Below, piece by piece: positions 9,088 to 56,193 of a stretch of DNA of 59,232 nucleotides. Position numbers and translations under genes: made by a program. The stretch comes from Candidatus Omnitrophota bacterium (GTDB taxonomy: Bacteria > Omnitrophota > Gorgyraeia > Zapsychrales > Fredricksoniimonadaceae). The notes under the pieces are model-generated. The model was not told the origin of the DNA. It saw nothing but the letters and a program-made list of their open reading frames with translations, and ran no database searches. Position 1 is the first letter of the stretch, and every line of letters starts with the position of its first letter. The stretch covers positions 1 to 59,232 of the forward strand of contig PEAF01000006.1 of assembly GCA_002753465.1 (NCBI GenBank), given 5' to 3'.

Positions 9088-10359
9088 ATGCTGATACGAA
9101 AACGCTCTGCCCAGTCAGTTTTGGAATATGCGGTGATGGCTGCCGTCGTCGCTGCTGCCGTTATCTTCGGCGGGCCCGTCCTTATCCGCTCCATCAATGC
9201 GCATTTTAAGATCATGGATAATAACGCGACGGATGCCATGCAGGAGCATATCAGGCAGTCCGGACCTTTGGCGACGACAACAAACTGTTCATGCTCCCCG
9301 GATAATGATAATCCTACGGTATGGTCACCCGGTAATTGCGGTATCGGCGGATGCACCAAGTTACAGCGCTATCGTTATCGCCAGTGCACCCCGTTGCTGT
9401 GCCGCAAGGAGGGGGCTTGCGTTGAGGAACCCTCTTGTTGTGATGAGGTTACTCTTTTAGATTGCGGCACCACACTTCCGGGTAATTGCACCACGCGATC
9501 AGCCATACATCCTTCTTTTACAGGCAAGGTCGATTTCGGGACTTGCGCGGGAACAAATGATTGCGCGATCGGTGAGAAGATTGCCAAAGTAACATGCGGT
9601 GCCGTTGGCGGTACGACAGCGGATTTTTATGCCTGCAAGAATGAGCACCCGGCGTGCTACCCGGATTGTGTGGCGAGATATGGTGAGGATAACTCAACGC
9701 AATGCACGGCTTTTGCCCGCAGCGACCTGTACCGTGAAGTGGCTCACCGTTTGTCGAGTACCGATACGCCGGTACGAGGTCAGTCTTTTTATACCGCGGC
9801 GGAGAATCCTAACGGCGTGGGAGCTTATAAGCTGGATATGGCTTTCGTCCACGGGGTCGGTTCCTGTGATACGGCTACCCCCAGATATTGCGAGAATTAT
9901 TGCACCAATTGTCGTATCCCGAATTCGTCGGGTACAAGCTGTGTGGTATGGTCTTGCAATCCTAATCCTCCTATACCGCTGACGGTGGCTAGGAACGCGC
10001 CTGTCAGTACTACGGTTGACCCGGGAGATGCGAGTATAGGGACTTTTAAGGTAACGGCGTATGCGGATGACCTCGATCTGGGGGTTGCGTGTTTCAATGC
10101 AGACGGGACCATCAATCAGCAGGCCGGCAACAGGCATCTGGGTTCATGTCCCGGCGATGCGTCCATTTTGCCCGTATCGGTCAAAGGGGTGACATGGTGT
10201 TACAGCGCTCGCATGATGAGTTTGGGCACGCATGCACAGGTCTCTTGTATAGGTAATTACGCCTATGTTCAGTTTTGGGCAGGCCCCGGTATTCCGGCAG
10301 ATGGGTGGAACCCAACGCCCACCATCGGATATCAGGCTTGCCGCTTGCCTTCATCCTAA
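9088..10359 (+). CDS. Cysteine-rich protein with an Flp/type IVb-pilin-like N-terminal segment
   Basis: AAGGAGA Shine-Dalgarno. The N-terminus is MLIRKRSAQSVLEYAVMAAVVAAAVIFGG (basic head, EY, hydrophobic helix). The remaining ~370 aa contain about 29 Cys by my count. Confidence 0.7.
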   Translation: MLIRKRSAQSVLEYAVMAAVVAAAVIFGGPVLIRSINAHFKIMDNNATDAMQEHIRQSGPLATTTNCSCSPDNDNPTVWSPGNCGIGGCTKLQRYRYRQCTPLLCRKEGACVEEPSCCDEVTLLDCGTTLPGNCTTRSAIHPSFTGKVDFGTCAGTNDCAIGEKIAKVTCGAVGGTTADFYACKNEHPACYPDCVARYGEDNSTQCTAFARSDLYREVAHRLSSTDTPVRGQSFYTAAENPNGVGAYKLDMAFVHGVGSCDTATPRYCENYCTNCRIPNSSGTSCVVWSCNPNPPIPLTVARNAPVSTTVDPGDASIGTFKVTAYADDLDLGVACFNADGTINQQAGNRHLGSCPGDASILPVSVKGVTWCYSARMMSLGTHAQVSCIGNYAYVQFWAGPGIPADGWNPTPTIGYQACRLPSS

Positions 10360-13137: not shown

Positions 13138-13139
13138 GA

Positions 13140-13340
13140 TCAGCCGCCTCCTACAAATGATATAAGTTCAATCCTGTCATGGGTTTTAAGCTGTGTTGAG
13201 ACCCATTCTTTGCGGTCCAGGATCGCACCATTGAGTTCACAAATGACAAGTTCAGGCTTCTTGCAGGAAGTGTTGATCAGGCTTTCGGCAGAAATAGGTG
13301 CCAGGAATGTTTTAGTTTGTCCGTTGACAGTGATTTCCAT
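13140..13340 (-). CDS. thiS: Sulfur carrier protein ThiS
   Basis: 66 aa, ends in GG, and lies immediately upstream of thiG. Confidence 0.85.
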
Positions 13341-13395
13341 ATGGGGGACATATTAGAATAGGGTGGGTTAAAAAGCAAGTCTTCCCTGCGTCATA

Positions 13396-13546
13396 AATGT
13401 TTCGCCAAGCTATAACCCTTGTTCATGCCCTGTGGCTCAGACAGTCCTCGCGCATCCGTTTTTGAGGGATGTTGAATGAGGGTTGAAAACGGATGGCTGC
13501 GGAACTCGCCCTTAGGGCATGAACGGCGGGTTGCTTGGCGAACATT
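13396..13546. repeat. Family-B hairpin element (related to family A through the GCTCAGACAGT / AACTCGCC loops)
   Basis: Outer stems AATGTTTCGCCAAGC / GCTTGGCGAACATT and GTTCATGCCCT (13421-13431) / AGGGCATGAAC (13514-13524). Loop motifs at 13435-13445 and 13503-13510. Inner helix CATCCGTTTT (13453-13462) / AAAACGGATG (13486-13495). Confidence 0.55.
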
Positions 13547-13608
13547 AGAGATGCACTTGCTCTGGGGCAGATTGGCATCAACCTTATATATATGATATCT
13601 TTTATACT

Positions 13609-16600
13609 ATGGTGGTATTTCGGTTATCGGTAAAACGGCTGGTTTCAGTTTGGGTCCTGTGTGCTTTTATGTTCACACAGGCCATGCCTGGCTATGCGCA
13701 AGGCATTCCGACGGCGGCTGCGGTGGCTGGGTTCACTCCGGTACAGTTGACCGGCATAGTTATCGACCCCAAAGACCCCTTTCATTTCGATTTCATCATT
13801 GATCGCGGACAGGATCAGTTGCCCGACGCGGCCAGGAAAGATATTTATACCAGTCAGGTCAAATATTTCCTTGCCGCCCTGGCCATTCCCGATAAGGACC
13901 AGTGGGTCAACCTTTCACCGTACGAACAAGACCGCATCATCCCGGATAATTTCGGGCTGACCTTGATGGGGCGGGACCTTCTCAGCCAGGATTATCTCTT
14001 AAAACAGATCGCTTCAAAAATGACCAGCCCCCAAACGTCTTTGGGCAAGGATTTCTGGGATAAGGTTTACGCCGCGGCACACGAAAAATTCGGCACAACA
14101 GATATTCCAACGGATGTGTTCAACAAGGTATGGATCATTCCTGAAAGCGCGGTGCTTTACGAGAAAGATGGGGCTGTTTATGTCCAGGAGCATCATCTGA
14201 AAGTTCTACTTGATAGCGATTACCTGGCATTGAACAAGTCGCGTGTAGCTGCGGGCACGTCTTCTGCTGCTCAGGAAATGATCAAAGATGTTATGCGCGA
14301 AGTGGTCATACCTGTTCTTGAGAAAGAGGTGAATGAGGGCAGGGATTTTGCACCGTTGCGCCAGGTCTACAGCGGGATGTTATTGGCGGTGTGGTACAAG
14401 CGCACACTTCAGGGATCTCTTCTTAATCAGGTTTATACCGACCGCGCCAGGGTCAGGGGCATCGACCAGGACCCTCAGGCAAACAAGGAAATATACGCGC
14501 GTTATGTCGAGGCTTTCCGTCAGGGGGCATTTAATCTGATCAAGGAGGATGTGGATCAGTTCACGCGTGAAGTTATTCCCCGGCGTTATTTCTCGGGTGG
14601 TTTGATGAATGCCGATGCGGCCATGTTCGAAGCGGGCAAGGTTCAGCACGTGCCTCGGTTGGCCGCAGATGCCTTAAGGAATCAGGAGGCGGTCTCTGTT
14701 CGTCTTGTTGAGCCGGGGAAAAATGTCAAAGTGTTCCAGGCTACGGCCCGCGGTATGCTGGCTAAGGCTGTCGGTGACCTGGCCCCCGGAGATCCCTGGG
14801 GCTCGGCGCGCATGTTGTTGGATCAGGTGAAGCTGGATATGCCGGCGGAGATCCTTGCCTATCAGCAAGAGATGTCCGGAGATGCCGTGCCGGCCAAGTG
14901 GGCGAGTTTGCTGGCGGGATATCAGGAAAAGGGGCAGAAAAAGAAGTTGGTGTTGAAAAAGATCGGCGAAAAGGCCGGGATAGTGGGCAACACGCTTTAT
15001 TATCCGTTTGCGGGTGGGGATACGGATGAGCCGTTTTCCATGTCAGCGAATATCAGGCATGTTATGGCGATGGGGCAGGAGCCTTTCGGATCTGTCGCGC
15101 AGATCAAGGAATTCTTTATGAAGGTAGGTTATGCGGACCGGTTCGGGGACCGTAACCGTGATGGTTATGATCATGGCGACCGTTTGTCTAAGCTGAATGC
15201 TGTGGCCGGGTTGGCCATGGCCAGGATCATTGTCACGCTGAAGGCCCGTGTTGTCGGTATCAAATATTTTGATATTGAGCAGAACGGGGATGTTCGGTTC
15301 AAGGACCTTGTCCAGGGCGATGTGCCGTCAGCAAAGAATGCGGTGATCGTTTTTCAGGACCGTGACGGGCAGATCAAAACCTTCTGGTATTGTCAGTACA
15401 ATGTGACCATGTTCGCGAAAGACATTGTGCGGCCTGATCCTTTTCGCCGCATGGTCAATCGGATGAAGTTTCAGACTTTGCTGATCAAGGCGGCACAAAG
15501 TTTTCTTTTCGAGGGTATTATCGGGTTGAATACGGCGGTGGTTGTCGGAGAGCCTGCCCGGCGCAACGATGCTTTGGTGCTGACCGACAGCCGGTTGGAC
15601 CATAAAATGGAACCTATCGCTTTTCGAGATATCCCGCAGCCTGTTTTTTCTGTTAAGCCATCATCGATTTCATGGCTGGGCTGGTCGCGCGTGGGTTATG
15701 GCGGCAGCGTTTATTACGGCCGTGCCCGCGCCATCCTGGCGGATGTCTGGAATGCGCCCCTGCAAGTCTGGAAAGCGCGCCCGTATGTGCCGGATATCGT
15801 CATAGACAATGTTGATGACGTTAAATATGAACCGTCCAAGTTGATGGATGGCGTGCTGTTCACGGAGTTAAAGGATCGTCATTACGAGGTTAAGTCGGAT
15901 GCTGTCAGGATCAATACGGAAGATGGCAATGAGATCGAGATAGTCCGGCAGGGCGCTGTAAGGTGGACCATGAGGAATGTGGTTGATATCGAGGTATCAC
16001 CGCGTGATAAGGTGGCCAGGATCTATTACGATGAGAATAATGAATGGCGCGAAGCACGGCTGGACCTTAATACAGGAGCGTTTACGTCGCAAAGTTTGTG
16101 GGATTCTTTAGCGCAGGTTGATATGGCTCAAACGCGGGAGCGAACCGCCGGAGATCCGTTGCAAAGAGCGCGGGAGTTTTTGAAGGCGCAGCGGTTGGAT
16201 ATGCCCCGCGAGCTTGAAAAATGGCAGGCCATGCTTCGTCAGGCGCCGGCAGATTCTGTTTTAGGTAAGGAGTTGGCCGTTCTGCGCCGAGAGAATGAGG
16301 TGAAGACGGATGCTCTTGTTGAGGCGGGGCAGGAGATCAATGGCCAGATAAAGGCAGGGGGTGTTCTGCCGAATGATTTAACGGGCGAGGTCGGATATTA
16401 TCCTTTTGGTGGAAGTGATTTTGATGAGCCGGCGCGCCTGGCCGGGCAGTGGAAGGATCTGATCGTCATGGGGCAGGAGCCCTTCGGCAGTCGCGGCATT
16501 ATCAACCTTTTCTTTGTTAAAGGTAACCGCATTGTCAATACGCCTGGCCGTGGGTTTAATGTAAATGATGTGCGGGAACAATTTGGATTCAAGAAGAAGA

Positions 16601-19600
16601 GTTTTGATGAGCACGAAAACCTTAAGAAATTGAAGTATGTCGGTGTGAGGGCGCTGGGCCGCATCATAACTTATCTTGAGGGCGAGGTTGTTGGGATCAA
16701 GTATTTTGATCTTGACCGTGAGGGTAATGTTAATTTTGTCGAGTCAGGCTCTTCACAGGCGAGGACTAATGCTGTTGTTGTGTTCAAGGATAAAGATGGT
16801 CAGGAGCGCCGGTGTTGGTATTTTCAGCATAGCCTTGAAGCCAGGGTGAGCGCTATTTCCGAGCAGGTGCCTTTCAGGGCTTTTATCAACCGGGCTTCTT
16901 TTCAGTTTATGATCATCAAGGCCGCGCAGAGTGATCTGTTCGAGGGGATTTTAGGTTTGAATACGTATACGGTTGTTGGCCGTCCTGCGAAAAGAAATAA
17001 TGCCCTTGTTCTGGCGGATCAGCGTACGGCGCATCCGACATACGGCCGGGATTATGGCATCGTGGTCGATCAACAGCCTGTGTTTAAAGATGTGCCGCGC
17101 AAATATGTTTTCGGGGGCGTGCCATACGGGTATGGGTACAAGCTCTTTTATGCGCCGGTGTCTGCATTGGCAACGCCATTTACAGCTCCTTCTGATGTTG
17201 TCGGGTACGCTCCTTATGCCCCGGATATTAAAATGGAATACGCGGGCAGTGTCGATGAAAATGCGCCGCGGGTCTTGCAAGGCGTTACCATTTCGCGCGA
17301 CGGGGACTATTATTCCATTAGAAAAGGAAATGTGCGGCTGGAGACAAAGCCGAGGAATACGCTGGTCTATGCCGTTGACGGCAAAGAGGTTGTTTTAAGC
17401 GGTGTTTCCGATGTTCATGTATATATGAGCAAGTCTTTGGTCCTTGTTTATTATTTTGCGGATGGGGCCTGGCGTGAAGGGCAGCTTTCATTACTGGACG
17501 GGGTTTTTAAAACAAAGATGCTTCAGGCGGCCCGCATTGCGGCCGGAGAAGACGCGGCGCAGGCTGACGATGTGCCATCGCGGCAGGCCTGGGACCCTTT
17601 AAAAAGGGCGCAGGAGGCGTTAAAGGAACAGTCATTGACGATGTCTGCGGGATTATCGCAGTGGCAGGCTATCGTCCGCGACCCTGCAGGCCCTTTGGCG
17701 TCAACGATCCGTCAGATCAGAAAAGACAACAGGGTTTATGCCGCGAAGCTGCATCAGGCCGGGCATAAGATGCACATGCCCGATGGCGTTATCTATTATC
17801 CGTTCGGCGGCATGGATGCGGCGGATCCTTTTATGATGTCGGCGGGAATAACAGATGTTGTATCGATGGGGCATGAGGATTTCGGCAGTTTAAAGCAGAT
17901 CGATCAATTCTTCAGGACTGGCCATGCGCGTGCAGTTTCGGATGGCCTGCGTAATCCGGGGGGCTTCATGTTTGATCATTTGGGAGGGCGGGAGGGAAGT
18001 TTTGACTCTGTGGCTAATTATTGGGATCCCAGAAGGGCGAAGGGCTGGAAGGGCTTTGGCCAGACAGCTGTGGCGAGGATACTGACACTTTTGGAGGGGC
18101 GCATTGAGGGTGTTCAGTATTTTGTTCTGGATCCCAAGGGCGACATTCAGTTTGTTGACGCGGGGTCGAAGAAGGCCGGCGTTAACGCGGTAGTTGTCTT
18201 TTACGATAAGAACGGGAACGAGAAGCGTTTCTGGTATATGCGTCATTATGTTGGTTCGCAGATCGTGGATGTGCCCCGGACGCCCTTTGAATTGTTTATC
18301 CGAAAAGCTTCATTCCAGACTTTATTGATCAAGGCAGCCCAAAGTTGGTTGTTCGAAGGAGTGCAGGGGCTGAATGTGCAAGCTATTGTGCATGAGCCTG
18401 CTCGGCGGAACGGGGCGATGGTCATCACCGATATAAATATCCCCGATGATCCCTTTGGGTTTGGGACAGGCGCGCCGCAGCCTGTTTTCGCGCGTGTACC
18501 GCAGAGCCTGGATATGGGCGGCAGGTATCGTTTTGGTTATGGTAAGCACATTTTCTTTGCGCTGGCTGATAAATTGACGCGCCCTCAGGATGATCCCTTT
18601 TATACGATCGGCCGTAGGCTTTATCGTCCTGCTTTTGTAGCTGATGGTGACCGGCAGGTTATCTGGCGCCATTACCATAAGTTCTTTGGTGATGTGGCGG
18701 TGGAGGGGACAGACGAAAGCTTTGTTATTCATGCCGGGACGGTGCAGTTGTCGATCACGGGCGATAACCGCGTTGTGTTCAGAGAGAATAATGAAGTACG
18801 TAAAGCGTGGGCGCTCGTGACCGATGTTCAGCTGGACAGTCGTGGCGAGAGCGTGCTCATTTATTACTTTGATAAAGAGTCAGGATGGCATGAATCGCGC
18901 CTTGATCTTAAGGCCGGGACATGGATGACTAAAGCGCTGGATTTCAAAGGAATGATGCTGGCGGAGGAAGATGCGTTGCGCAATGTGTCTCCTGGCGATG
19001 AGAACGTCGCCGCTGATGTGCCTGGACTGGACGCTGACACGCGCGCACGGCTTGAGGTATTATTTTCAGATTTCTCCAAGCCGCTGGGGGATATGCAACG
19101 TGAGCTGCGTGCTATTTTCCCTCAGGGGGGTATTTCGCTGACCAAAGACGGGTTTCATTTTAACCGGGACAGGATGCCGGCGCCTGACGAGGTGTTGGGC
19201 ATGGCGATGCGGTATTTCCAGGGGTATAACATGGGCAACAGGGTGTTCACCGTGGCTGATTTTAATACAGAAGAGCGGGAGTTGGCCCGGCAGAATATCG
19301 TCAATGATGAAACGCCGTCGGAGATCAGCTCGAAATCTTACCAGGACCTTGAACTGCGGGAGAAGGATCAAATTTTTGAAGCCCTGGCCCGCCGTGTTCA
19401 GTCCGGCCGCATGCTGCATGTGGACCATCATTACGGGTATCATGTCCTGGCCCAGGCCAGCACAGCCGCCATGCTTTTGGATTTTGTCCGGTATCTTCAC
19501 GCGCACGGAAAGCAGGATACGCTCGGGCGCTTGAAAGACACGTTCATTTTTTCGGATCATTCGGATGTTGATATCATGCTCGCTAATTTTGTCCTGCGGC

Positions 19601-20586
19601 ATGCCGGTGATCAGGCTTTTCTGGAAGCTAACCGTGAGGCGATCATCAATGCCGTCAGTATTAATGATTACGCACTGGATAAAGGGTCCAGGGCGGGGGT
19701 TATTCTCTATGATGTTCTTGTGGCGATGGGAGAGGATGTTAAAGCCCATGGCTTTGATGAAGAAAAGATGATGGCCGTCGTTGAGGATGCGCTTGTCTTT
19801 GCCAATCAGAACGCTGACCTTGAAGAGGCTGCCTTGTTCGCACGCGCCGGATCATTGTATGCGGGGCAGAGTGCCGCGGTGGTTGATTATTTTTTGAAAG
19901 GCGTGGTCCGTTTCCTGAAAGCTTCGCAGGTCTTTAACAAGATGATGGCCGCTTCAGATGGCCATCTTAATGACCGGCAGATCGTTCCCGGGCAGATGCG
20001 TATCTTGGACAGGGTGCTTTTTTGTTATGTGCGCGATCATGATGCTGAGCTCGACAATACGGACATTGCCCGTATCATTTCATCCAGTCCTCACTACCGG
20101 AAAATGTTAGACGGTGTGCTGGCGATCGCCACGACCAATCCGGTTCCCGGTCAGGCGGGTGACAGGCGGTTCAAGATCCGCGCCCTGGACACCCTGGACC
20201 TTTCCCCCGAGTTTTGGAATGAGCTGGGCAAGGCAACGGTAGCGTATGGGACCCACCCGGGTGGCCGTTCCATGGGTGGCGGTCTCGGGAAAGAGGCGTT
20301 GAAGGATCTTTTGCCGTTAGATGTGGCCAAGATCGCGGTGTCGATCAGTTCTCTGGTTGAAAAGCACGCCCGTATCCAGGATGATTCGCTTAAGGCCAAG
20401 GGTGGTATTGATCTTGGTGATGGACATTTAAATATGATCATCAGACGGGATAGCAACAATATCCCGTTGCCGGTGGCGCAGCAGGGCATCGAGCGCTTTA
20501 AGATCGATGGCCTTGTACCTGAGATCCTGGACATACGCCCCGCGGCATCACTGCCTCTTTTTAGCCAGTCTTCGTCGGCACGTTAA
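13609..20586 (+). CDS. Giant (2325 aa) secreted modular protein of unknown function
   Basis: Uninterrupted ORF with a signal-like N-terminus MVVFRLSVKRLVSVWVLCAFMFTQAMPGYAQG. It has three internal ~450-480-aa modules and a distinct ~545-aa C-terminal domain. No family recognised. Confidence 0.85.
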   Translation: MVVFRLSVKRLVSVWVLCAFMFTQAMPGYAQGIPTAAAVAGFTPVQLTGIVIDPKDPFHFDFIIDRGQDQLPDAARKDIYTSQVKYFLAALAIPDKDQWVNLSPYEQDRIIPDNFGLTLMGRDLLSQDYLLKQIASKMTSPQTSLGKDFWDKVYAAAHEKFGTTDIPTDVFNKVWIIPESAVLYEKDGAVYVQEHHLKVLLDSDYLALNKSRVAAGTSSAAQEMIKDVMREVVIPVLEKEVNEGRDFAPLRQVYSGMLLAVWYKRTLQGSLLNQVYTDRARVRGIDQDPQANKEIYARYVEAFRQGAFNLIKEDVDQFTREVIPRRYFSGGLMNADAAMFEAGKVQHVPRLAADALRNQEAVSVRLVEPGKNVKVFQATARGMLAKAVGDLAPGDPWGSARMLLDQVKLDMPAEILAYQQEMSGDAVPAKWASLLAGYQEKGQKKKLVLKKIGEKAGIVGNTLYYPFAGGDTDEPFSMSANIRHVMAMGQEPFGSVAQIKEFFMKVGYADRFGDRNRDGYDHGDRLSKLNAVAGLAMARIIVTLKARVVGIKYFDIEQNGDVRFKDLVQGDVPSAKNAVIVFQDRDGQIKTFWYCQYNVTMFAKDIVRPDPFRRMVNRMKFQTLLIKAAQSFLFEGIIGLNTAVVVGEPARRNDALVLTDSRLDHKMEPIAFRDIPQPVFSVKPSSISWLGWSRVGYGGSVYYGRARAILADVWNAPLQVWKARPYVPDIVIDNVDDVKYEPSKLMDGVLFTELKDRHYEVKSDAVRINTEDGNEIEIVRQGAVRWTMRNVVDIEVSPRDKVARIYYDENNEWREARLDLNTGAFTSQSLWDSLAQVDMAQTRERTAGDPLQRAREFLKAQRLDMPRELEKWQAMLRQAPADSVLGKELAVLRRENEVKTDALVEAGQEINGQIKAGGVLPNDLTGEVGYYPFGGSDFDEPARLAGQWKDLIVMGQEPFGSRGIINLFFVKGNRIVNTPGRGFNVNDVREQFGFKKKSFDEHENLKKLKYVGVRALGRIITYLEGEVVGIKYFDLDREGNVNFVESGSSQARTNAVVVFKDKDGQERRCWYFQHSLEARVSAISEQVPFRAFINRASFQFMIIKAAQSDLFEGILGLNTYTVVGRPAKRNNALVLADQRTAHPTYGRDYGIVVDQQPVFKDVPRKYVFGGVPYGYGYKLFYAPVSALATPFTAPSDVVGYAPYAPDIKMEYAGSVDENAPRVLQGVTISRDGDYYSIRKGNVRLETKPRNTLVYAVDGKEVVLSGVSDVHVYMSKSLVLVYYFADGAWREGQLSLLDGVFKTKMLQAARIAAGEDAAQADDVPSRQAWDPLKRAQEALKEQSLTMSAGLSQWQAIVRDPAGPLASTIRQIRKDNRVYAAKLHQAGHKMHMPDGVIYYPFGGMDAADPFMMSAGITDVVSMGHEDFGSLKQIDQFFRTGHARAVSDGLRNPGGFMFDHLGGREGSFDSVANYWDPRRAKGWKGFGQTAVARILTLLEGRIEGVQYFVLDPKGDIQFVDAGSKKAGVNAVVVFYDKNGNEKRFWYMRHYVGSQIVDVPRTPFELFIRKASFQTLLIKAAQSWLFEGVQGLNVQAIVHEPARRNGAMVITDINIPDDPFGFGTGAPQPVFARVPQSLDMGGRYRFGYGKHIFFALADKLTRPQDDPFYTIGRRLYRPAFVADGDRQVIWRHYHKFFGDVAVEGTDESFVIHAGTVQLSITGDNRVVFRENNEVRKAWALVTDVQLDSRGESVLIYYFDKESGWHESRLDLKAGTWMTKALDFKGMMLAEEDALRNVSPGDENVAADVPGLDADTRARLEVLFSDFSKPLGDMQRELRAIFPQGGISLTKDGFHFNRDRMPAPDEVLGMAMRYFQGYNMGNRVFTVADFNTEERELARQNIVNDETPSEISSKSYQDLELREKDQIFEALARRVQSGRMLHVDHHYGYHVLAQASTAAMLLDFVRYLHAHGKQDTLGRLKDTFIFSDHSDVDIMLANFVLRHAGDQAFLEANREAIINAVSINDYALDKGSRAGVILYDVLVAMGEDVKAHGFDEEKMMAVVEDALVFANQNADLEEAALFARAGSLYAGQSAAVVDYFLKGVVRFLKASQVFNKMMAASDGHLNDRQIVPGQMRILDRVLFCYVRDHDAELDNTDIARIISSSPHYRKMLDGVLAIATTNPVPGQAGDRRFKIRALDTLDLSPEFWNELGKATVAYGTHPGGRSMGGGLGKEALKDLLPLDVAKIAVSISSLVEKHARIQDDSLKAKGGIDLGDGHLNMIIRRDSNNIPLPVAQQGIERFKIDGLVPEILDIRPAASLPLFSQSSSAR
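14791..16152 (+). repeat. Giant-protein tandem module 1 (454 aa)
   Basis: Collinear motifs DPWGSARMLLDQVKLDMP, YYPFAGGDTDEP, MGQEPFGS, VVGIKYFD, NAVIVFQDRDG, LLIKAAQSFLFEGIIGLN, EPARRNDALVLTD, IYYDENNEWREARLDL. Confidence 0.7.
16153..17592 (+). repeat. Giant-protein tandem module 2 (480 aa)
   Basis: DPLQRAREFLKAQRLDMP, YYPFGGSDFDEP, MGQEPFGS, VVGIKYFD, NAVVVFKDKDG, MIIKAAQSDLFEGILGLN, RPAKRNNALVLAD, VYYFADGAWREGQLSL. Confidence 0.7.
17593..18948 (+). repeat. Giant-protein tandem module 3 (452 aa)
   Basis: DPLKRAQEALKEQSLTMS, YYPFGGMDAADP, MGHEDFGS, IEGVQYFV, NAVVVFYDKNG, LLIKAAQSWLFEGVQGLN, EPARRNGAMVITD, IYYFDKESGWHESRLDL. Confidence 0.7.
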
Positions 20587-20626: not shown

Positions 20627-20839
20627 ATGGTTGAGATCGTTTGCCCCTCTTGCAAGAATCCGACTTATGACGAAGACGCGCTATTGTGCCATTTTTGCGG
20701 CGGCAGTTTGCGGCGTAACAGTACGGGTGGCGTTTTGGGGAAGATGCGCGGCGCCGGGGCCAGGTGGATCTGGATCAGCGTTGGTGTTGTTCTGGCCGTG
20801 ATGACGATAATCACAATGTTCCTGCAGAAAGGGTTTTAA
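20627..20839 (+). CDS. Small zinc-ribbon protein with a C-terminal transmembrane helix
   Basis: CPSCKN...CHFCGG followed by WIWISVGVVLAVMTIITMFL. The stop overlaps the next ATG (TAATG). Confidence 0.55.
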   Translation: MVEIVCPSCKNPTYDEDALLCHFCGGSLRRNSTGGVLGKMRGAGARWIWISVGVVLAVMTIITMFLQKGF

Positions 20840-21384
20840 TGGCTTATAAATTGCACCCTGTGAACGCGAAAAAGGATATACCCGCCAAATACAAAGGAAC
20901 GCCGATCGGCGACCTTCTGGAATATCATAATTTAGACCGTTCATTCGAGACGTATGCGCAGGCCAAGCTTTTGATCGGGATGTGCATGGATAATCGCAAG
21001 CATTTGCACATGCCGGATAATTTCGCCTTTATCATCCGTTCTGGCGGGGCTAATTTGCGTTACAGTGAATTCAAGGTGTCGTTTGCCATCGCCATCGGCG
21101 GGGTGCGTCATATTGCGGTCATTGCCCATACCAATTGCGGCATGGTCAATATTGCGGCGCGTGAGAAAGAATTCGTGAAAGGGCTGGTTGAAGGCGCTGG
21201 CTGGACCAAGGCGCGGGCTGAAGAGCATTTTATGAACCTGGCGCTTGTGCATGAGATCGAGAATGAGATCGAATTTGTTTACAGCGAGACGCAGCGTCTT
21301 CGCAAGCGCTATCCCAAGGTTGTTGTGGCGCCGCTTTATTATAAAATTCAGGATAATCGGCTGTATTGTATTGAGTCAAAATAA
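20839..21384 (+). CDS. Beta-class carbonic anhydrase-like protein
   Basis: Zinc-ligand motifs CMDNR and HTNCGM at beta-CA-like spacing. The start was trimmed to ATG 20839 (MAYKLHP...) from the track's 20764. Confidence 0.65.
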   Translation: MAYKLHPVNAKKDIPAKYKGTPIGDLLEYHNLDRSFETYAQAKLLIGMCMDNRKHLHMPDNFAFIIRSGGANLRYSEFKVSFAIAIGGVRHIAVIAHTNCGMVNIAAREKEFVKGLVEGAGWTKARAEEHFMNLALVHEIENEIEFVYSETQRLRKRYPKVVVAPLYYKIQDNRLYCIESK

Positions 21385-35130: not shown

Positions 35131-35203
35131 TTGCATTGTTTATGGTTTTCCATGATTTCATCGTATATACTTGATGGCGGTGGATAAAATTGGGGCCATA
35201 GAT

Positions 35204-37348
35204 ATGCGTAAGAGCGTCATCATCATCGTTAGCGCCATCTTTATCATTAATAGTAGTATTCTTTCCTTTGCTCAATCCATTGATGTGTCCCACGTTGCTT
35301 CAGATATCGGCGCCGTTGTTGCTTCAGGCACTATGGGCAAGGCTTTCTCCGGCCGGGATCTTGGCCATTTCATTTCCGATATTCAGCCTCCGTTAAAAGT
35401 TTCAGTTTCAGATGTCATGAGCCCTGGTTACGATCGTGACGCCATGAGCGTGAAGATCGCTGCCGGCGTTATGGCGCTCAGTGACGCCAGGACGCATGTG
35501 GCGCCCAGTCATTTGGGTCATCCCGGGTATCAGGATGCAGCCTTTGTCTATGATAAGGCGGTAGATGCCTTGATTTTGCATGCGGCCGGGCGTACCCTTG
35601 AGGCGAAGGCACTGCTTGATTATTTCGCGCAGCGTTTACGCATTCCGATGAAGGATGTGCGCCGCAACGCCGATGCCAACGGGATCTATGGCATGCTCAA
35701 GCTTTTCCCGTCGACTGACGATCCCAAGGTCGTTTCGCTGGTCAATGCCGTTAATTGCCGGTCTATGGATGAATCAGGCCAGGGGCAGGTGGAGTACTGG
35801 ACAACGCCGGGGCCATTGGCATTTATGGTGCTGGCTTTTTTAACCGTTGACCGTAAGCAATATTTACAAGATGCGATCAAAGTCGGGCAGGCTATTTTGG
35901 CCATGCAACGTGCGGACGGGGCCATCACCGACGGAGACCGTGACGCCAGGAATGTCCATACCGAGCCGCACATGGATAGTTATTCAGCGTTTCTGATGCT
36001 TTATGATGTGACAGGCGATGAGAAGTGGAAGGCGGCGGCTGAGCGCGCCTGGGCATGGTTTGTCAGTAATGTTTATCGCCCGGACCAGCATGTGATCTAT
36101 CAGGGTATTCGTCCGGCGGGCCCCAGTGAGGTCTTTGCCACCGATACGTATTCATGGACCATCGCCGGGCGCGGCGGGGACCGGCTGCCGTTGAATGTGA
36201 TCGAGGCGCTGATGGACAGGATGCTGCGTCGCAGTGTTTCCCAGGTAACGCTGGAGCTTCCGGATGGCAAGACCAAGACGCTGACCTTGGTTGATTTTGC
36301 GGATGTGCAGGATATGCGCATCACCGCGGACAGGGGCGGTTTTCATCCTATGGGTTCGGTCGAGTGGATCGGCGGCGTTATTTTAGCCCTGCAAAAGAGT
36401 GCGGTGCGTTTTGAGAATGCGGGTGATGAGCCAAATCGTACCAAGGCAAAATTTTATAAAGCCCTGGCTGAGTATTTTACACAGCAGGCTGTGGATTCTT
36501 TCTATGAAGTAGACGGCGTGGCCGGTGTCTTGTCGTTTTATGCCACGGGGCAGTGGACCGCGACAGGCCACGGATGGAAGACGCCGTATTTTTATGTCAA
36601 GGACCCTGACGGTAAGCCCGTGATCAAAGGCGGCAGCACCATCAGCAGTTGGCCGGTATTGCCGCTTAAGCGGGTGAATCCTTTCATGCTCGATGATCCG
36701 TATGGACAGGTGTATGACCGTATTGTGGCCGATGGCGCTGCCCGTCAGCAGGCAGCGGCTTATGTGACGGAGGTGGCTGCGGCGCGCGCGTTCATGGAGA
36801 GCGTGCCGGCCGAGATGGCATCTGATGTCGGCGATATCCCGGAAATGTGGCGGTATAATGCCCGCATGTTCCAGGCGTTTGAGGCGGGCGATTATTATGC
36901 GGCTATCCTGTGGGCGCAGAAAGTTGTGGGTAATAGTGAATGGGTCAAAATGGCCGCAGATCAACAGGCGCGCAAGGCGCGTGATATCGGTGGTCTGGTC
37001 GAGTATACCTGGGGTTCTTCGGCGGCTGATGCCAAAGAGTCAACGCGCCTTATCCAGAAATATCCGCTTTTAAATGAAATGGGAACGGCCATGTGGGGCA
37101 TGGCCGTGTCGCAGTTCAAGCTGGGCAATCGGAATGATGCCAAGTCTTGGATCAAGACGCTGATCGAAACAGTGCCGTTGCATCAGATCTTTGCGCCCTC
37201 AGGCCCGGGTTACTGGAGCGCTATTATTTCGTGGGAAGATAATCCCGGTGGGACCGTACTGGATGCCGAGATGGGAGAGGTTTACAGGGAAGTGCTGGCT
37301 GAAATGGGCCGCACATCCGCCATACCTAAGATCTTTGCGATAAAATAA
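35204..37348 (+). CDS. Secreted 714-aa protein of unknown function (C-terminal TPR-like helices)
   Basis: Signal peptide MRKSVIIIVSAIFIINSSILSFAQS in a long ORF without a recognisable catalytic motif. Trimmed from the track's 35171. Confidence 0.65.
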   Translation: MRKSVIIIVSAIFIINSSILSFAQSIDVSHVASDIGAVVASGTMGKAFSGRDLGHFISDIQPPLKVSVSDVMSPGYDRDAMSVKIAAGVMALSDARTHVAPSHLGHPGYQDAAFVYDKAVDALILHAAGRTLEAKALLDYFAQRLRIPMKDVRRNADANGIYGMLKLFPSTDDPKVVSLVNAVNCRSMDESGQGQVEYWTTPGPLAFMVLAFLTVDRKQYLQDAIKVGQAILAMQRADGAITDGDRDARNVHTEPHMDSYSAFLMLYDVTGDEKWKAAAERAWAWFVSNVYRPDQHVIYQGIRPAGPSEVFATDTYSWTIAGRGGDRLPLNVIEALMDRMLRRSVSQVTLELPDGKTKTLTLVDFADVQDMRITADRGGFHPMGSVEWIGGVILALQKSAVRFENAGDEPNRTKAKFYKALAEYFTQQAVDSFYEVDGVAGVLSFYATGQWTATGHGWKTPYFYVKDPDGKPVIKGGSTISSWPVLPLKRVNPFMLDDPYGQVYDRIVADGAARQQAAAYVTEVAAARAFMESVPAEMASDVGDIPEMWRYNARMFQAFEAGDYYAAILWAQKVVGNSEWVKMAADQQARKARDIGGLVEYTWGSSAADAKESTRLIQKYPLLNEMGTAMWGMAVSQFKLGNRNDAKSWIKTLIETVPLHQIFAPSGPGYWSAIISWEDNPGGTVLDAEMGEVYREVLAEMGRTSAIPKIFAIK

Positions 37349-47854: not shown

Positions 47855-47927
47855 GCCGAGATAGCTCAGTTGGTAGAGCGAAGGACTGAAAATCCTTGCG
47901 TCACCAGTTCAACTCTGGTTCTCGGCA
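47855..47927 (+). tRNA. tRNA-Phe (anticodon GAA)
   Basis: Hand-folded cloverleaf: acceptor GCCGAGA/TCTCGGC, D arm GCTC-AGTTGGTA-GAGC, anticodon arm AAGGA-CTGAAAA-TCCTT, T arm ACCAG-TTCAACT-CTGGT. 73 nt, CCA not encoded. Confidence 0.9.
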
Positions 47928-49315: not shown

Positions 49316-49388
49316 CGCCGATGTAGCTCAGTTGGTAGAGCAGCGCATTCGTAATGCGCAGGTCGGAGGTTCAACCCCTCTCGTCGGC
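49316..49388 (+). tRNA. tRNA-Thr (anticodon CGT)
   Basis: Hand-folded cloverleaf: acceptor GCCGATG/CGTCGGC (one G-U pair), D arm GCTC-AGTTGGTA-GAGC, anticodon arm GCGCA-TTCGTAA-TGCGC, T arm GGAGG-TTCAACC-CCTCT. 73 nt. Confidence 0.9.
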
Positions 49389-49395
49389 TTATATT
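49371..49395 (+). repeat. 25-bp direct repeat, copy 1 (T-loop to 3' end of tRNA-Thr plus 7 nt)
   Basis: CAACCCCTCTCGTCGGCTTATATTT, identical to 49507-49531. Confidence 0.9.
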
Positions 49396-52579: not shown

Positions 52580-55078
52580 TCAGACGATGATCCTTGTCAG
52601 GGGTTTAACACCGAAACGGTCGAAGATGGCCTGGATCTCGTCGTATTCGAGTTCACCTTTGGCTTGCAGGTCAACGGCAAAGGCATCCAGGAGGCCTCTG
52701 TTCTCATTGAGGATCCTGGCCGCGTCTTCGAGGCATGAACTGAGGATCTCTTGCACATCCTGATCAAGCTTTTCTTTGGTCTTTTCGGAAATAGCATTGG
52801 TGCCAAGGCTCTGGGTGAGTGCCGCCAGATCGCCTAAAAGACCGGTGCTTCCCATGCCGTAACTCCAGACCATGGCGCGCGCCATGTTGACCGCGCTATC
52901 GAAATCACTGCCGCGGCCGCCGCCGACGCCGCTGCCGGTCGTGCCGAATTTGATCTTTTCGGCCGCATAGCTGGCCAGCGAAACCTTGATGCCGGCCAGG
53001 AACCATTCCTTATTATTCACGTAAAGCTCTTCACGCGGACGCGGCGCCACGAACCCCAATGAGCCTTTGTGCGGGATGATGGTGGCTTTGATGACGTCAT
53101 TGCTCGGGTGCAGCAGATAGCCGATGATGGCATGCCCGGCTTCGTGGTATGCGACCCATTCTTTTTCCTGGGCGTTCAATATGGTATTTGACCGTTCGCC
53201 GTACAGGATCCTGTCATAGGCCTGGGAAAGGTCTTTGAAGCAAATGACGGTACGCTTTTCGCGCAGCGCGATAAGGCCTGATTCGCGGACCATGTTGTCG
53301 ATGTCGGCCGCCGAGAACCATAGCGTCTTACGGGCCAGCATCTCGGGATTGACGTCGGTTTCAACTGTGACTTTTTTGAGGTAGAAGTCGAAGAGTTCTT
53401 TGCGTTCTTTAAGGTTCGGGCGTGTGACATAGATCTTGCGTTCAAAGCGGCCCGCGCGTAAAAGGGCTGAATCGAGGTAGCGCTCTTCCATGTTCGTTGC
53501 CGCGAGGATGAGGATATTCTGCTCGTCGTGTTTCAGGCCGTCCATTTCCGTCAGGAACTGGTTGACGGTATTGTTGTGTTCGGTCATGCCGCCGCCACCG
53601 GTCTCGACGCCGCGCGGCGTGGCAAAAGAATCGATCTCATCAACGAAAATGATACAGCCGCCCTCGACCTTGGCCAGGGCGCGCGCCTCTTTGAATAGAG
53701 AACGGACGCGCTTGGGGCCGACGCCTACGAACATTTCAATGAATTCACTGCCGGTGACCGATATGAACGGATATCCGGCTTCAGTTGCCATAGCCTTGGC
53801 CAGGTACGTTTTGCCGCAGCCCGGAGGCCCCATCATGAGGATGCCTTTGACCATTTTTCCGCCGACAGCCTTGAGGCGGCTGCGGTCTTTGAGCAGTTCC
53901 AGGATCTCGCCGGCCTCCCTTTTGGCGCTTTCCATGCCGATGACATCCGCCCATTTGACATTGACACGTGCCGAAAGGATCTTGTCGCCGCCGGTCTTTT
54001 CAATGGAGTGCATGACGCGTTCAAGGGCTTTTTCAATGTCTTCATGGCTGGTGATATGACGATGGTCGCGCATGCTGATGATGGCGGCTTCACGCACCAT
54101 GTTGTTAATATCTGCCGGAGAGAACCACTTCATTTTTTCGGCGATCGCCGGCACATCCACTTCAGGCTCGGAGGAGATCTTTTGCAGGTAGAATTTCAAA
54201 AGCTCTTCACGGTCACGTGCGGAGGGCTTGGATATTTCGATCTTGCGGTCAAAGCGCCCGGAGCGCATGATGGCCGCGTCAAGTTCTTCTTCGGGCACGT
54301 TGGTGGCCGCAATGACGACGATATTGTTTTCCGTCTGGCGCAGGCCGTCAAGCTCGGTCAGGAACTGGTTGATGGTGGCGTTATGGTCGCTTTGGGCGCC
54401 GATATTGCCGGAGGAATCCCCGGTGCGCGGGCGGGCAAAGGAGTCGATCTCATCAATGAAAATGATGCAGCCGCCTTCAAGTTTGGCCATTTTGCGTGCT
54501 TCCTTAAAGAGGCTTTTCATGCGCGATGCGCCCAGTCCTACGAACATGGCCACGAATTCACTGCCGACCGCTGAAAGGAAGGGCAGCCCGGCTTCGGTGG
54601 CGATGGCTTTAGCGAGATAAGTTTTCCCGCAGCCCGGGGCGCCGACTAGAAGTGTTCCTTTGATGATGTTGCCGCCGATGACCTTAAGCAGCTTACGGTC
54701 TTTGAGGAACTGAACGATCTCCCAGGCCTCTTTTTTAGCCTGTTCCATGCCGATGACGTCATCCCATTTGACATTGGCCTTGGAATGCGTGGCGGTATCC
54801 GAGCCGAGGAAGCTGGCCATGCCGCCGCCCATGAACATGAAATAGTAAAGAACGCCGTACATCGCGGTGAAGATAACGCCCTGGACGATGCCCATGAAAA
54901 GGTACATGCCCATTTGCGCCATCATCTGTTTGCGCGAGAATGATTCAAGGGATGTGAAGCTGCTGAACCCGAAAACAAGAAGGGTCACAACCGTGATGAC
55001 AAAAGTGGCCGCCAAGAAAATGAGCAGCATCTTCAGCCAGTTGAGTTTCAGCCATGTGATAAATTTGATCTTGGCCAT
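52580..55078 (-). CDS. FtsH-like membrane metalloprotease with two tandem AAA+ modules
   Basis: Two N-terminal TM helices. AAA module 1 has GAPGCGKTYLAKA, IIFIDEIDS and MRSGRFDRKI. AAA module 2 has GPPGCGKTYLAKA, IIFVDEIDS and LRAGRFERKI. These are followed by an M41-type zinc motif, AYHEAGHAIIGY. Confidence 0.85.
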   Translation of the reverse strand: MAKIKFITWLKLNWLKMLLIFLAATFVITVVTLLVFGFSSFTSLESFSRKQMMAQMGMYLFMGIVQGVIFTAMYGVLYYFMFMGGGMASFLGSDTATHSKANVKWDDVIGMEQAKKEAWEIVQFLKDRKLLKVIGGNIIKGTLLVGAPGCGKTYLAKAIATEAGLPFLSAVGSEFVAMFVGLGASRMKSLFKEARKMAKLEGGCIIFIDEIDSFARPRTGDSSGNIGAQSDHNATINQFLTELDGLRQTENNIVVIAATNVPEEELDAAIMRSGRFDRKIEISKPSARDREELLKFYLQKISSEPEVDVPAIAEKMKWFSPADINNMVREAAIISMRDHRHITSHEDIEKALERVMHSIEKTGGDKILSARVNVKWADVIGMESAKREAGEILELLKDRSRLKAVGGKMVKGILMMGPPGCGKTYLAKAMATEAGYPFISVTGSEFIEMFVGVGPKRVRSLFKEARALAKVEGGCIIFVDEIDSFATPRGVETGGGGMTEHNNTVNQFLTEMDGLKHDEQNILILAATNMEERYLDSALLRAGRFERKIYVTRPNLKERKELFDFYLKKVTVETDVNPEMLARKTLWFSAADIDNMVRESGLIALREKRTVICFKDLSQAYDRILYGERSNTILNAQEKEWVAYHEAGHAIIGYLLHPSNDVIKATIIPHKGSLGFVAPRPREELYVNNKEWFLAGIKVSLASYAAEKIKFGTTGSGVGGGRGSDFDSAVNMARAMVWSYGMGSTGLLGDLAALTQSLGTNAISEKTKEKLDQDVQEILSSCLEDAARILNENRGLLDAFAVDLQAKGELEYDEIQAIFDRFGVKPLTRIIV
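53159..53968 (-). repeat. AAA+ module 2 of the FtsH-like protein (aa ~371-640)
   Basis: Collinear with module 1 (VNVKWxDVIGME.AK.EA.EI...LKDR..LK..GG...KG.L..G.PGCGKTYLAKA.ATEAG.PF). Confidence 0.7.
53969..54778 (-). repeat. AAA+ module 1 of the FtsH-like protein (aa ~101-370)
   Basis: By eye, roughly 55-65 percent amino-acid identity to module 2 across Walker A, Walker B and the second region of homology. Confidence 0.7.
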
Positions 55079-55248: not shown

Positions 55249-56193
55249 ATGGGCGTCGTTAAAGTTTCAATGCTGCGGGTAGCTTATGATGAAGTTACGG
55301 CTGTCAGCGAGCTTTCGTTTCAATTGGAGCGCGGGAAGATCTACGGGTTCGTCGGTCCTAATGGCGCCGGAAAAACTTCGACCATCAAGGCATTGGCGGG
55401 CGTGCTTGAACCTGCGCAGGGAAAGATCATCCTGAATGGTTTTGATCTGGAAACAGAGCGTGAAAAAGCTTTGACGCATGTGGGTTACATGCCGGACTTT
55501 TCTCCCGTGTATGACAATTTGAAGGTTTGGGAATACCTGGATGTTTTTGCGGCCGCGTACGGTGTTAATAGCGGGGAGAGGGCCGGTCTTGTCGAGAAGT
55601 GGTTGCATAAGAGTGACCTCATGGTCAAGAAGGATGCCCTTATTAAGGGATTGTCCCGCGGGATGCATCAGCGGCTGGTATTGGCTAAAACGCTTGAGGT
55701 AGGGCCTAACATTTTACTTCTGGATGAGCCGGCCAGCGGCCTGGACCCGATCGCGCGCAAGCAAATGCGTGACCTTTTAAAGGAAGCCAGTGCGGGTGGG
55801 GCAACGATCCTTATTTCCAGCCATATTCTCTCGGAGCTGAGCGAGTTTGTGGATTCTGTTATTATTCTCGAAAAGGGCAAGCTTGTCATTGCCGGCACGG
55901 TCGATGATATCCGCAAGAAGACCGGCATGGCACAGAAGCTTATTTTGCGCTTTACCAAAGAAGAGGATGGTCTTGCCGTTCTCGAGAAATTATTGCAGGC
56001 CGAAGGCATACCTAAAGAGTGCGTGTCGCGGGACAGGGACCATCATATCGTCCATTTTCAGAATAATGAAGTGCAGGCATCACAATTCTTAACGAAGCTT
56101 ATTTCCACCGGGGTGGGGTTGTCGGAATGTTCTTTGAAGAACGATGACATTGAAGATATTTTCCTTAAGATCGGTGCCAAGGAGGTTGCATGA
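55249..56193 (+). CDS. ABC transporter ATP-binding protein
   Basis: Walker A GPNGAGKTS, signature LSRGMHQRL, Walker B LLLDEPASGLD. GGGGAGGGG precedes ATG 55249, which is preferred over the track's TTG 55213. Confidence 0.85.
   Translation: MGVVKVSMLRVAYDEVTAVSELSFQLERGKIYGFVGPNGAGKTSTIKALAGVLEPAQGKIILNGFDLETEREKALTHVGYMPDFSPVYDNLKVWEYLDVFAAAYGVNSGERAGLVEKWLHKSDLMVKKDALIKGLSRGMHQRLVLAKTLEVGPNILLLDEPASGLDPIARKQMRDLLKEASAGGATILISSHILSELSEFVDSVIILEKGKLVIAGTVDDIRKKTGMAQKLILRFTKEEDGLAVLEKLLQAEGIPKECVSRDRDHHIVHFQNNEVQASQFLTKLISTGVGLSECSLKNDDIEDIFLKIGAKEVA

Follow-up and report, generated by a model that had tools for sequence, protein, structure and literature searches.

A predicted exported mosaic protein of an Omnitrophota bacterium combines family-constant ends with three ancient, possibly enzymatic modules

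A 59,232-nucleotide stretch of the genome of a Candidatus Omnitrophota bacterium (contig PEAF01000006.1 of assembly GCA_002753465.1; hereafter the window, at its full length) carries at 13609-20586 (+) a single open reading frame (ORF) for a 2,325-aa protein of modular build. As judged from its sequence, this protein is a member of a very large, multi-copy and mostly Omnitrophota-labelled mosaic family, in which both ends are constant and the interiors differ from member to member. Comparison with its relatives established the architecture of the protein, its family membership, the age of an internal triplication, the shuffling of its cassettes and its absence from known families. Our favoured explanation, to which we assign a probability of roughly 0.55, is that it is a soluble mosaic protein exported through the Sec route of an Omnitrophota-type diderm, with constant ends, a member-specific interior and modules that resemble enzymes.

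Omnitrophota are widespread, uncultured and ultra-small bacteria that are thought to be predators or parasites, and long mosaic proteins are among their most striking and least understood traits. By its general logic the window protein joins this known kind. Below the giants of at least 10,000 amino acids (10 kaa), it brings to light numerous proteins of 0.8-5 kaa that make up one very large family with fixed ends and essentially unrelated interiors, and three of its elements, the N-terminal domain, the C-terminal tail and the module core, are absent from Pfam and NCBIfam.

A predicted exported protein with family-defining ends

The gene starts with ATG and its frame is open over 6,978 nt. From the translation and from a full-length syntenic orthologue (P0002, 48-58% identical to the window protein) we derived the layout N-terminal domain (NTD), modules M1, M2 and M3, C-terminal domain (C-domain) and C-terminal tail (C-tail). 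An earlier reading of the DNA made from the letters alone (the sequence-only reading) had noted a signal-like N-terminus, and this was borne out. Hydrophobicity, the n-region and the -3/-1 residues together predict a Sec-type signal peptide at aa 1-30 (13609-13698, +). It has a basic start (MVVFRLSVKR) and a hydrophobic stretch at aa 2-26, followed by a predicted cleavage site between PGYA and QG; the basic n-region and the small residue pair at -3/-1 were read off the sequence. This is the sole hydrophobic segment of the protein (KD19 of at least 1.6 at aa 2-20), and a hydrophobicity scan of all 2,325 residues found no transmembrane segment beyond it. The same layout, with A before and Q after the cleavage point, recurs across the family, and an AxA-like site is present in 101 of the 117 members that start with M. 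A lipoprotein reading of the signal peptide was rejected, as the cysteine is not conserved in the family and the window protein has no lipobox. An exosortase- or rhombosortase-type C-terminal sorting signal was also rejected: the tail has no transmembrane helix and no NCBIfam match.

Two further elements define the family. The NTD (aa ~36-335; 13714-14613, +) carries the motifs KYFLAxLAxPD..WVNLSPYE.DRII, MGRDLLxQDYLLKQ, NKVWIxP, EKEVNEG and PR(K/R)YFSGG, and is 45-61% identical to the N-termini of 120 listed homologues. The ~390-aa N-terminal domain proposed by the sequence-only reading is thus present, but its nature had been missed, since it consists of the signal peptide and this ~300-aa constant domain. 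At the other end, the C-tail (aa 2265-2318; 20401-20562, +) reads GGIDL....L.M.I.RD....PLP..QQ.....I.IDGLVP.I..I.PA...PLF and follows the family consensus GGID(L/F)N.ANL.MQIKRDG.GVPLP..QQ.L.NI.IDGLVPVI..I.PA...PLF. Hidden Markov models of the NTD and of the C-tail each match all 120 listed homologues. When the whole protein was used as query (8,000 candidates scored, E <= 1e-3), at least 1,828 proteins matched, and their source names, where given, are mostly Candidatus Omnitrophica/Omnitrophota. BLAST placed the regions common to query and relatives at aa ~8-340 and at aa ~2265-2320, the latter with 40-67% identity.

A genomic census by pattern scan of one genome per GTDB species, with loci confirmed by tblastn, yielded at least 585 family loci. 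The best 80 of these fall in 52 assemblies, with up to four loci per assembly. By their record titles, whose labels are unchecked, 52 of the 80 are Omnitrophica/Omnitrophota/Omnitrophus, 26 are 'uncultured Planctomycetales', one is Elusimicrobia and one Elulimicrobium. The window itself holds a single copy. Five of the 80 family loci examined have another member directly upstream, and no other recurrent upstream partner was found at these loci. The tandem cases include L007 and L036/L049; two loci on CAZKUL010000012.1 lie ~13 kb apart.

In contrast to the ends, the interiors have almost nothing in common. They range from 845 to 2,945 aa among the 120 listed proteins, and only 141 of 14,280 ordered pairs share any blastp match, which leaves 99% of pairs unrelated; the best coverage that an interior receives from any other has a median of 7%. 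Among 119 relatives, the interior of the window protein matches only those of P0002 (over its full length) and P0003 (26%). A precomputed Pfam domain occurs in ~35 of the 120 interiors. Judged by source names, these paralogue domains include HPr, triose-phosphate isomerase (TIM), MBL-fold hydrolase, Maf, aminotransferase and XRE HTH, besides response regulator, cNMP-binding, NUDIX and DnaJ domains. The pairwise divergences of NTD and tail correlate (Spearman 0.51, against 0.003 +/- 0.057 for shuffled labels), indicating that the two ends travel together while the interiors are replaced. The smallest members consist of NTD, one module core and tail (P0135, 897 aa; P0183, 820 aa). With a ~300-aa domain, a ~55-aa tail and members of 820-900 aa, the family is tractable for questions of export, anchoring and assembly.

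The sequence-only reading had recognised no known family, and our searches agree. The whole protein and each of its parts had no match in Pfam, NCBIfam, PHROGs or PADLOC, and sequence and profile searches of the PDB (with the protein and with alignments A3, A4 and A5) returned no match either. Individually, neither the NTD nor the C-tail matched Pfam, NCBIfam or PDB sequences. An AlphaFold2 (AF2) model of the NTD was poor (pLDDT 62) and predicted long helices, and no structural neighbour was obtained for it with Foldseek. Its matches to V-ATPase stalk, CutA, NheA, AhlB and colicin Ia had probabilities below 0.15 and were discarded as meaningless. A word-indexed homologue search returned one protein for a 25-sequence module alignment and none for the C-domain, where it missed the query's own protein; its nulls do not equate to absence.

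Three ancient modules that move as cassettes

Between the NTD and the C-domain lie module 1 (aa 395-848; 14791-16152, +), module 2 (aa 849-1328; 16153-17592, +) and module 3 (aa 1329-1780; 17593-18948, +). M1 and M3 were delimited in alignment A1. In M1, for which an AF2 model was also used, a helical lead is followed by an alpha/beta core (about aa 444-724) and a beta-meander tail. Three collinear modules with these boundaries had been proposed within a 2,325-aa ORF, and alignment over the whole length confirmed both. Their alignment spans the modules from end to end and has over 100 invariant columns. In a MAFFT alignment the other two are 37% and 34% identical to M1, and tblastn/blastp comparison of module pairs gave 33-36% identity with E = 1e-64 to 5e-69; in the window, module queries matched nothing beyond the other modules. 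The motifs described previously are kept in all three, namely the DP(W/L) lead helix, YYPF(A/G)G.D, MG(Q/H)E.FGS, NAV.VF.D, IKAAQS.LFEG, PA(K/R)RN and YY...W.E..L.L, the sole deviation being that the lead of M1 ends in YQ instead of WQ. At the DNA level, likeness between modules is confined to a few patches of 30-120 nt with 68-86% identity, and Tandem Repeats Finder reported no repeat.

The age of the triplication follows from two independent relatives. P0002 (1,868 aa) was found in an NCBI metagenome-assembled genome (MAG; GCA_974330525.1) and in an independent Logan assembly of SRR1560848, and it carries two modules rather than three. Its module a is 57% identical to M1 and its module b 53% identical to M3. 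M2 has no counterpart in P0002 and is equidistant, at 33-36% identity, from all four other modules. However, P0122, a 337-aa fragment from a JGI metagenome, is 60% identical to M2 and has this M2-type module joined straight to the family C-tail. The presence of an M2-type module in another architecture is therefore evidence of cassette shuffling. Since P0002 has the M1 and M3 types and P0122 the M2 type, the three module lineages are older than the divergence of these organisms. On these alignments the triplication is ancient and real, as the sequence-only reading had held, and individual modules are acquired, lost or relocated as cassettes.

Only P0001, P0002 and P0122 were found to have the helical lead (~60 aa) and the beta tail (~120 aa) seen in the window modules, from which it follows that the duplicated unit is a lineage-specific composite around a widespread core. 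By sequence comparison, the ~455-aa module is thus a composite of the helical lead, a widely scattered ~280-aa core and the beta tail.

The module core is a wider domain family

A search with the three-module profile against 1.84 billion representative proteins (50% clustering) retrieved 104 matching representatives, 80 of them below 1e-10. The part shared with these proteins spans profile positions ~50-330 and corresponds to the ~280-aa core from YYPFGGxD to PA.RN.A.V..D. About 60 matches are stand-alone proteins of 300-450 aa, some with signal peptides and many without; ~30 form part of long proteins, the longest of 7,806 aa. The proposal to look for single-module homologues was therefore productive, with both stand-alone and single-core proteins recovered. 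Core copies also occur in proteins of 3.8-7.8 kaa, and the 7,806-aa protein has five of them and neither NTD nor tail.

Across 56 core members, the near-invariant positions (module 1 numbering) are P72, G75, D77, G100, K233, G302 and Y303. All are kept in M1, M2 and M3, and because of this all three copies look intact. Searching the 56 members against Pfam gave no consistent family match, and the core-family profile had no match among PDB sequences. The core is thus represented by ~100 sequence clusters, on metagenomic contigs mostly of unknown origin, with a clear signature of conserved residues. Stand-alone homologues were seen on a probable DPANN-type archaeal contig, in a flagellated bacterium and beside a his operon; no neighbour gene is shared in the four contexts examined. 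The core family may be over-represented among small symbiotic lineages. A scan of viral contigs with the module motifs gave no confirmed relative. One stand-alone homologue (P0124; L085, 8001-9050) adjoins a Fic-domain gene on a contig of 171 kb that also carries archaeal-type PUA/DUF1947 genes, and another core homologue (P0223) has one cluster-mate labelled Woesearchaeota.

Fold of the module

Modelling of one module followed by a Foldseek search had been suggested as a check. The AF2 model of M1, built from 25 aligned sequences, had a pLDDT of 83.5 and a pTM of 0.86, and comprised helices at the N-terminus, an alpha/beta region and a beta meander of ten strands. The check gave no confident PDB family: against the PDB the whole-module model had nothing below E = 0.03. 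Its one strong match, in BFVD, was A0A5K0U891 of Yasminevirus sp. GU-2018 (E 6e-8, probability 1.0), an uncharacterised giant-virus protein of 393 aa that aligned over 335 columns with 13% identity. The remaining BFVD matches were weak methyltransferases (FkbM, cap N7-MTases). Two kinds of protein dominated the PDB matches of this model: its alpha/beta part matched class I methyltransferases (UbiG (5dpm), NNMT, OvoM and PRMT5/PRMT10) with probabilities of 0.1-0.54 and TM scores of 0.38 or lower, and its beta tail matched propeller blades of the TolB, YVTN, NHL and WD40 types with probabilities of 0.8-0.93 over ~90-120 columns. Taken over PDB and BFVD, the methyltransferase matches had E values of 0.03-0.2, probabilities of 0.1-0.6 and TM scores of 0.4 or lower.

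Class I S-adenosylmethionine (SAM) methyltransferases such as UbiG, NNMT, OvoM and PRMT5 are thus the best structural matches to the alpha/beta core, and they recur in both databases. In the model, the succession of beta1, Gly-rich loop, helix, beta2 and acidic residue (YYPFGGxD ... MGQE) would fit a nucleotide or SAM pocket, and the order of helices, Rossmann part and beta domain is reminiscent of PRMTs. In contrast to class I methyltransferases, the module lacks the canonical GxGxG and motif IV, and all structural matches to these enzymes are at E 0.03 or higher. The acidic E97 of M1 after beta2 is merely the majority residue in the family. The model therefore lends weak support to the core being a Rossmann-like enzyme domain with SAM methyltransferases as its nearest known relatives; membership of that superfamily is not established. 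Two readings of YYPFGGxD were considered and set aside: a PP-loop (SGGxDS), for which Foldseek gave no adenine-nucleotide alpha-hydrolase match, and a Dam-type loop (FxGxG), for which it gave no DNA methyltransferase match and the sequence no (D/N)PPY.

The C-terminal cassette

A distinct C-terminal domain of ~545 aa had been described beyond the modules. The region is there, but it consists of two parts, a ~480-aa cassette (aa 1781-2262; 18949-20394, +) and the ~55-aa family tail (aa 2265-2318). Among the proteins compared, the cassette is shared only with P0002 (58% identity) and, in a different architecture, with P0003 (31%), where it lies between PRTase-CE and His_Phos_1 (histidine-phosphatase) domains. 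Conserved blocks are LH(V/I)DHHY, DH(S/T)DxDI.L.NFVL, PGQMR and PGGRSMxGGxGK. In the window protein they appear as the His/Asp clusters LHVDHHYGYH and FSDHSDVDIML, together with the PGGRSMGGGLGK loop. The cassette had no match in Pfam, NCBIfam or the PDB. Because of its His/Asp clusters a metal site is suggested, and the sequence suggests a resemblance to the site of a metal-dependent hydrolase.

Possible function and location

If the protein is a Sec-exported soluble mosaic, its signal peptide would carry it out of the cytoplasm, and its target would lie outside the cytoplasm of the producer, either in the producer's own envelope or in a host or prey cell. Lipid A and Bam components encoded in the window (a lipid A acyltransferase and a BamD/YfiO-like protein, with Lnt besides) point to a diderm cell, in which a Sec signal by itself would take the protein no further than the periplasm. 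The constant ends would do a job common to all members, such as transit past the inner membrane, anchoring or assembly, the tail being a candidate signal for the second membrane or for attachment, and the interior would supply member-specific chemistry outside the producer's cytoplasm. In the window protein this chemistry would come from the module core, a putative enzyme with a SAM-methyltransferase-like nucleotide or cofactor pocket around YYPFGGxD and GxE. Three non-identical copies of one enzyme type could provide a broader substrate range or higher local activity.

A number of observations weigh against this explanation. Both the function and the location of the window protein are inferred from sequence, and the role given to the ends rests solely on their constancy, the NTD model being poor and lacking a structural neighbour. 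Paralogues carry cytoplasm-type domains (HPr, response regulator, TIM, DnaJ), which sits uneasily with a role confined to the periplasm or the surface, and some stand-alone core homologues have no signal peptide. No secretion or pilus genes were found near the gene within the window. The sequence-only reading had speculated that the modules are enzymatic with a cofactor-binding loop. The near-invariant P/G/D/G/K/G/Y positions and the recurrent methyltransferase matches in Foldseek are consistent with this, but the methyltransferase-like assignment is non-significant by Foldseek E value and TM score. Moreover, Pfam methyltransferase models produced a single match among the 56 core members (Methyltransf_20, E 0.16), hhalign of the core-family profile with Escherichia coli UbiG gave a probability of 0.3%, and methyltransferase motif I, (D/E)xGxGxG, is absent, the loop being YYPF(G/A)GxD. 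A bolder form of the explanation, which we consider doubtful, would make NTD and tail one unit (a clasp, a polymerising scaffold or an export/attachment signal) that displays or delivers enzyme cassettes shuffled across the phylum, with the module as an unrecognised Rossmann-like enzyme family that has its own active-site signature. If true, Omnitrophota, possibly predatory, would display or deliver a shuffled enzyme library outside the cell.

The main rival keeps the same architecture and moves the site of action. In this unlikely scenario the proteins are effectors directed at a host or prey cell, the ends being recognition or translocation elements of a dedicated route and the interiors acting in the cytoplasm of that other cell, which would explain the cytoplasm-type domains of the paralogues (HPr, response regulator, cNMP-binding, TIM, Maf, NUDIX and DnaJ). 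PF05394, which we take to be AvrB_AvrC, occurs in two family members, and constant ends with extreme interior diversity, core homologues on a contig that is probably archaeal of DPANN type, and the structural match to a giant-virus protein are also compatible with effectors. Predatory or parasitic lifestyles have been proposed for Omnitrophota, and secreted giant proteins described in them, in PMC10066038 and bioRxiv 10.1101/2023.11.21.568195; effectors would fit such lifestyles. However, no secretion or injection apparatus lies beside the gene or recurs upstream of the 80 family loci, the extreme C-terminus, where classical polymorphic effectors vary, is constant here, and there is neither a known host nor an immunity-like partner that has been demonstrated.

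A purely structural role, as a surface, adhesin or coat protein in which non-catalytic repeats extend a fibre and NTD and tail pack in flagellin-like manner to polymerise or anchor it, appears less probable again. It would account for an exported protein with tandem repeats and no transmembrane segment, for beta tails that locally resemble propeller blades, for ends that diverge together and for the long helices predicted in the NTD; giant ORFs of Omnitrophota have been suggested to act as adhesins (PMC10066038). It is made less likely by the near-invariant polar residues of the core and by the stand-alone cores, often without signal peptide, in unrelated organisms. Copy number also differs (three against two) between orthologues that keep the motifs strictly, Pfam and NCBIfam searches revealed no adhesin, Ig, cadherin or dockerin domain, and the quality of the NTD model does not allow any claim on packing. 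That the protein is an artefact, whether a repeat expanded in assembly or separate genes or pseudogenes joined into one, is effectively refuted. The DNA is metagenome-derived and the exact protein was not found on a second contig. On the other hand, modules with 33-36% amino-acid identity and almost no DNA identity are too different for an assembler to confuse, collapse or expand, which excludes assembly expansion; the frame is open throughout, independent assemblies carry M1+M3 orthologues (NCBI MAG, Logan SRA) and an M2 orthologue (JGI), and the constant ends are placed as in all 120 relatives.

Comparison with known systems

Omnitrophota giants of at least 10 kaa, encoded by ORFs above 20 kb, have been divided into 'Archaeovorin', dockerin-type and 'multi-enzyme metabolic cluster' classes; according to three sources (West-Roberts et al. 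2023, bioRxiv 10.1101/2023.11.21.568195; Nielsen & Lui 2026, bioRxiv 10.64898/2026.06.07.730766; Seymour et al. 2023, PMC10066038), they have signal peptides, mostly many transmembrane helices and often a position beside T2SS/Tad-like loci and PilZ genes. The window protein shares with them the phylum, the signal peptide, strings of unrelated and often enzyme-type or unannotated domains, and internal repeats that are old at the DNA level. It differs in its size of 2.3 kaa, in having no transmembrane helix past the signal peptide and in its position among housekeeping genes. Pfam detected no HEAT, dockerin or TSP3 domain in it, and neither the upstream T2SS/T4P-like locus nor the downstream PilZ/sugar-transport genes of Archaeovorin- and dockerin-type giants adjoin its gene. 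The frame of constant NTD and C-tail did not surface in term searches of these three giant-protein papers, and a full-text literature search for the tail motif returned nothing relevant.

Polymorphic toxins (Rhs/YD, CDI CdiA, MafB) are likewise large exported multi-copy proteins with a constant delivery part, swappable parts and cassette exchange. In contrast to the window family, which is constant at both ends, their extreme C-terminus varies and is followed by an immunity gene. The extreme C-terminus of the window protein is the constant tail, the 70-aa gene downstream has no shown toxin or immunity relation to it, and no Rhs, YD or filamentous-haemagglutinin repeats were detected with Pfam. 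Flagellins, T9SS CTD proteins and autotransporters also combine constant N- and C-terminal elements with a hypervariable, sometimes enzymatic interior. By analogy, a C-terminal element in a diderm might signal outer-membrane transit or attachment. No similarity to flagellin, to a T9SS CTD or to an autotransporter barrel was found by sequence or profile; a ~55-aa tail is far too short for a barrel and, unlike the window protein, flagellins have no Sec signal peptide.

Genomic setting

The window is ordinary chromosome, with genes for Era, thiamine (thi) proteins, LeuRS, ComEC, MurJ, UvrC, YchF, a release factor and SecA. The neighbours of the large gene are thiG/thiH/thiF, Era, a carbonic-anhydrase (CA)-like gene, LeuRS and DeoC. 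Around P0002 the order is thiF-thiH-thiG on the opposite strand, then the large gene, a 70-aa gene, the CA-like gene, LeuRS and DeoC. A zinc-ribbon membrane protein and a beta-carbonic-anhydrase-like gene had been noted immediately downstream, and both were found. The former (20627-20839, +; read from the ORF translation) is a 70-aa zinc-ribbon-like protein with two CxxC pairs (CPSC...CHFC) and a C-terminal hydrophobic helix; it has no family match, and its stop codon and the start of the CA-like gene overlap. A 70-aa gene occupies this place after P0002 in two assemblies, and a functional tie to the large gene is unproven. The CA-like gene (20839-21384, +) has a weak Pro_CA match (Pfam PF00484, E 7.6e-6) and also follows P0002; it is probably a syntenic neighbour that is functionally unrelated to the large gene.

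A divergent intergenic region of 470 bp (13138-13608) separates thiG (-) from the large gene (+). An Rfam scan of the window found no TPP riboswitch upstream of thiG and no other family at gathering score except two tRNAs (47855-47927 and 49317-49389). The ORFs at 9088-10359 (423 aa), 35171-37348 (725 aa) and 56190-57725 (511 aa) have no Pfam or NCBIfam match, and at the position equivalent to 9088-10359 an orthologous contig (L001) carries a 461-aa gene without Pfam matches. The 423-aa ORFs at 9088 and 57808 were considered as repeats and rejected, since they are equal in length but unrelated in sequence. An FtsH-like protease of 832 aa (52580-55078, -) has two AAA stretches ahead of its M41 peptidase domain and is longer than a typical FtsH.

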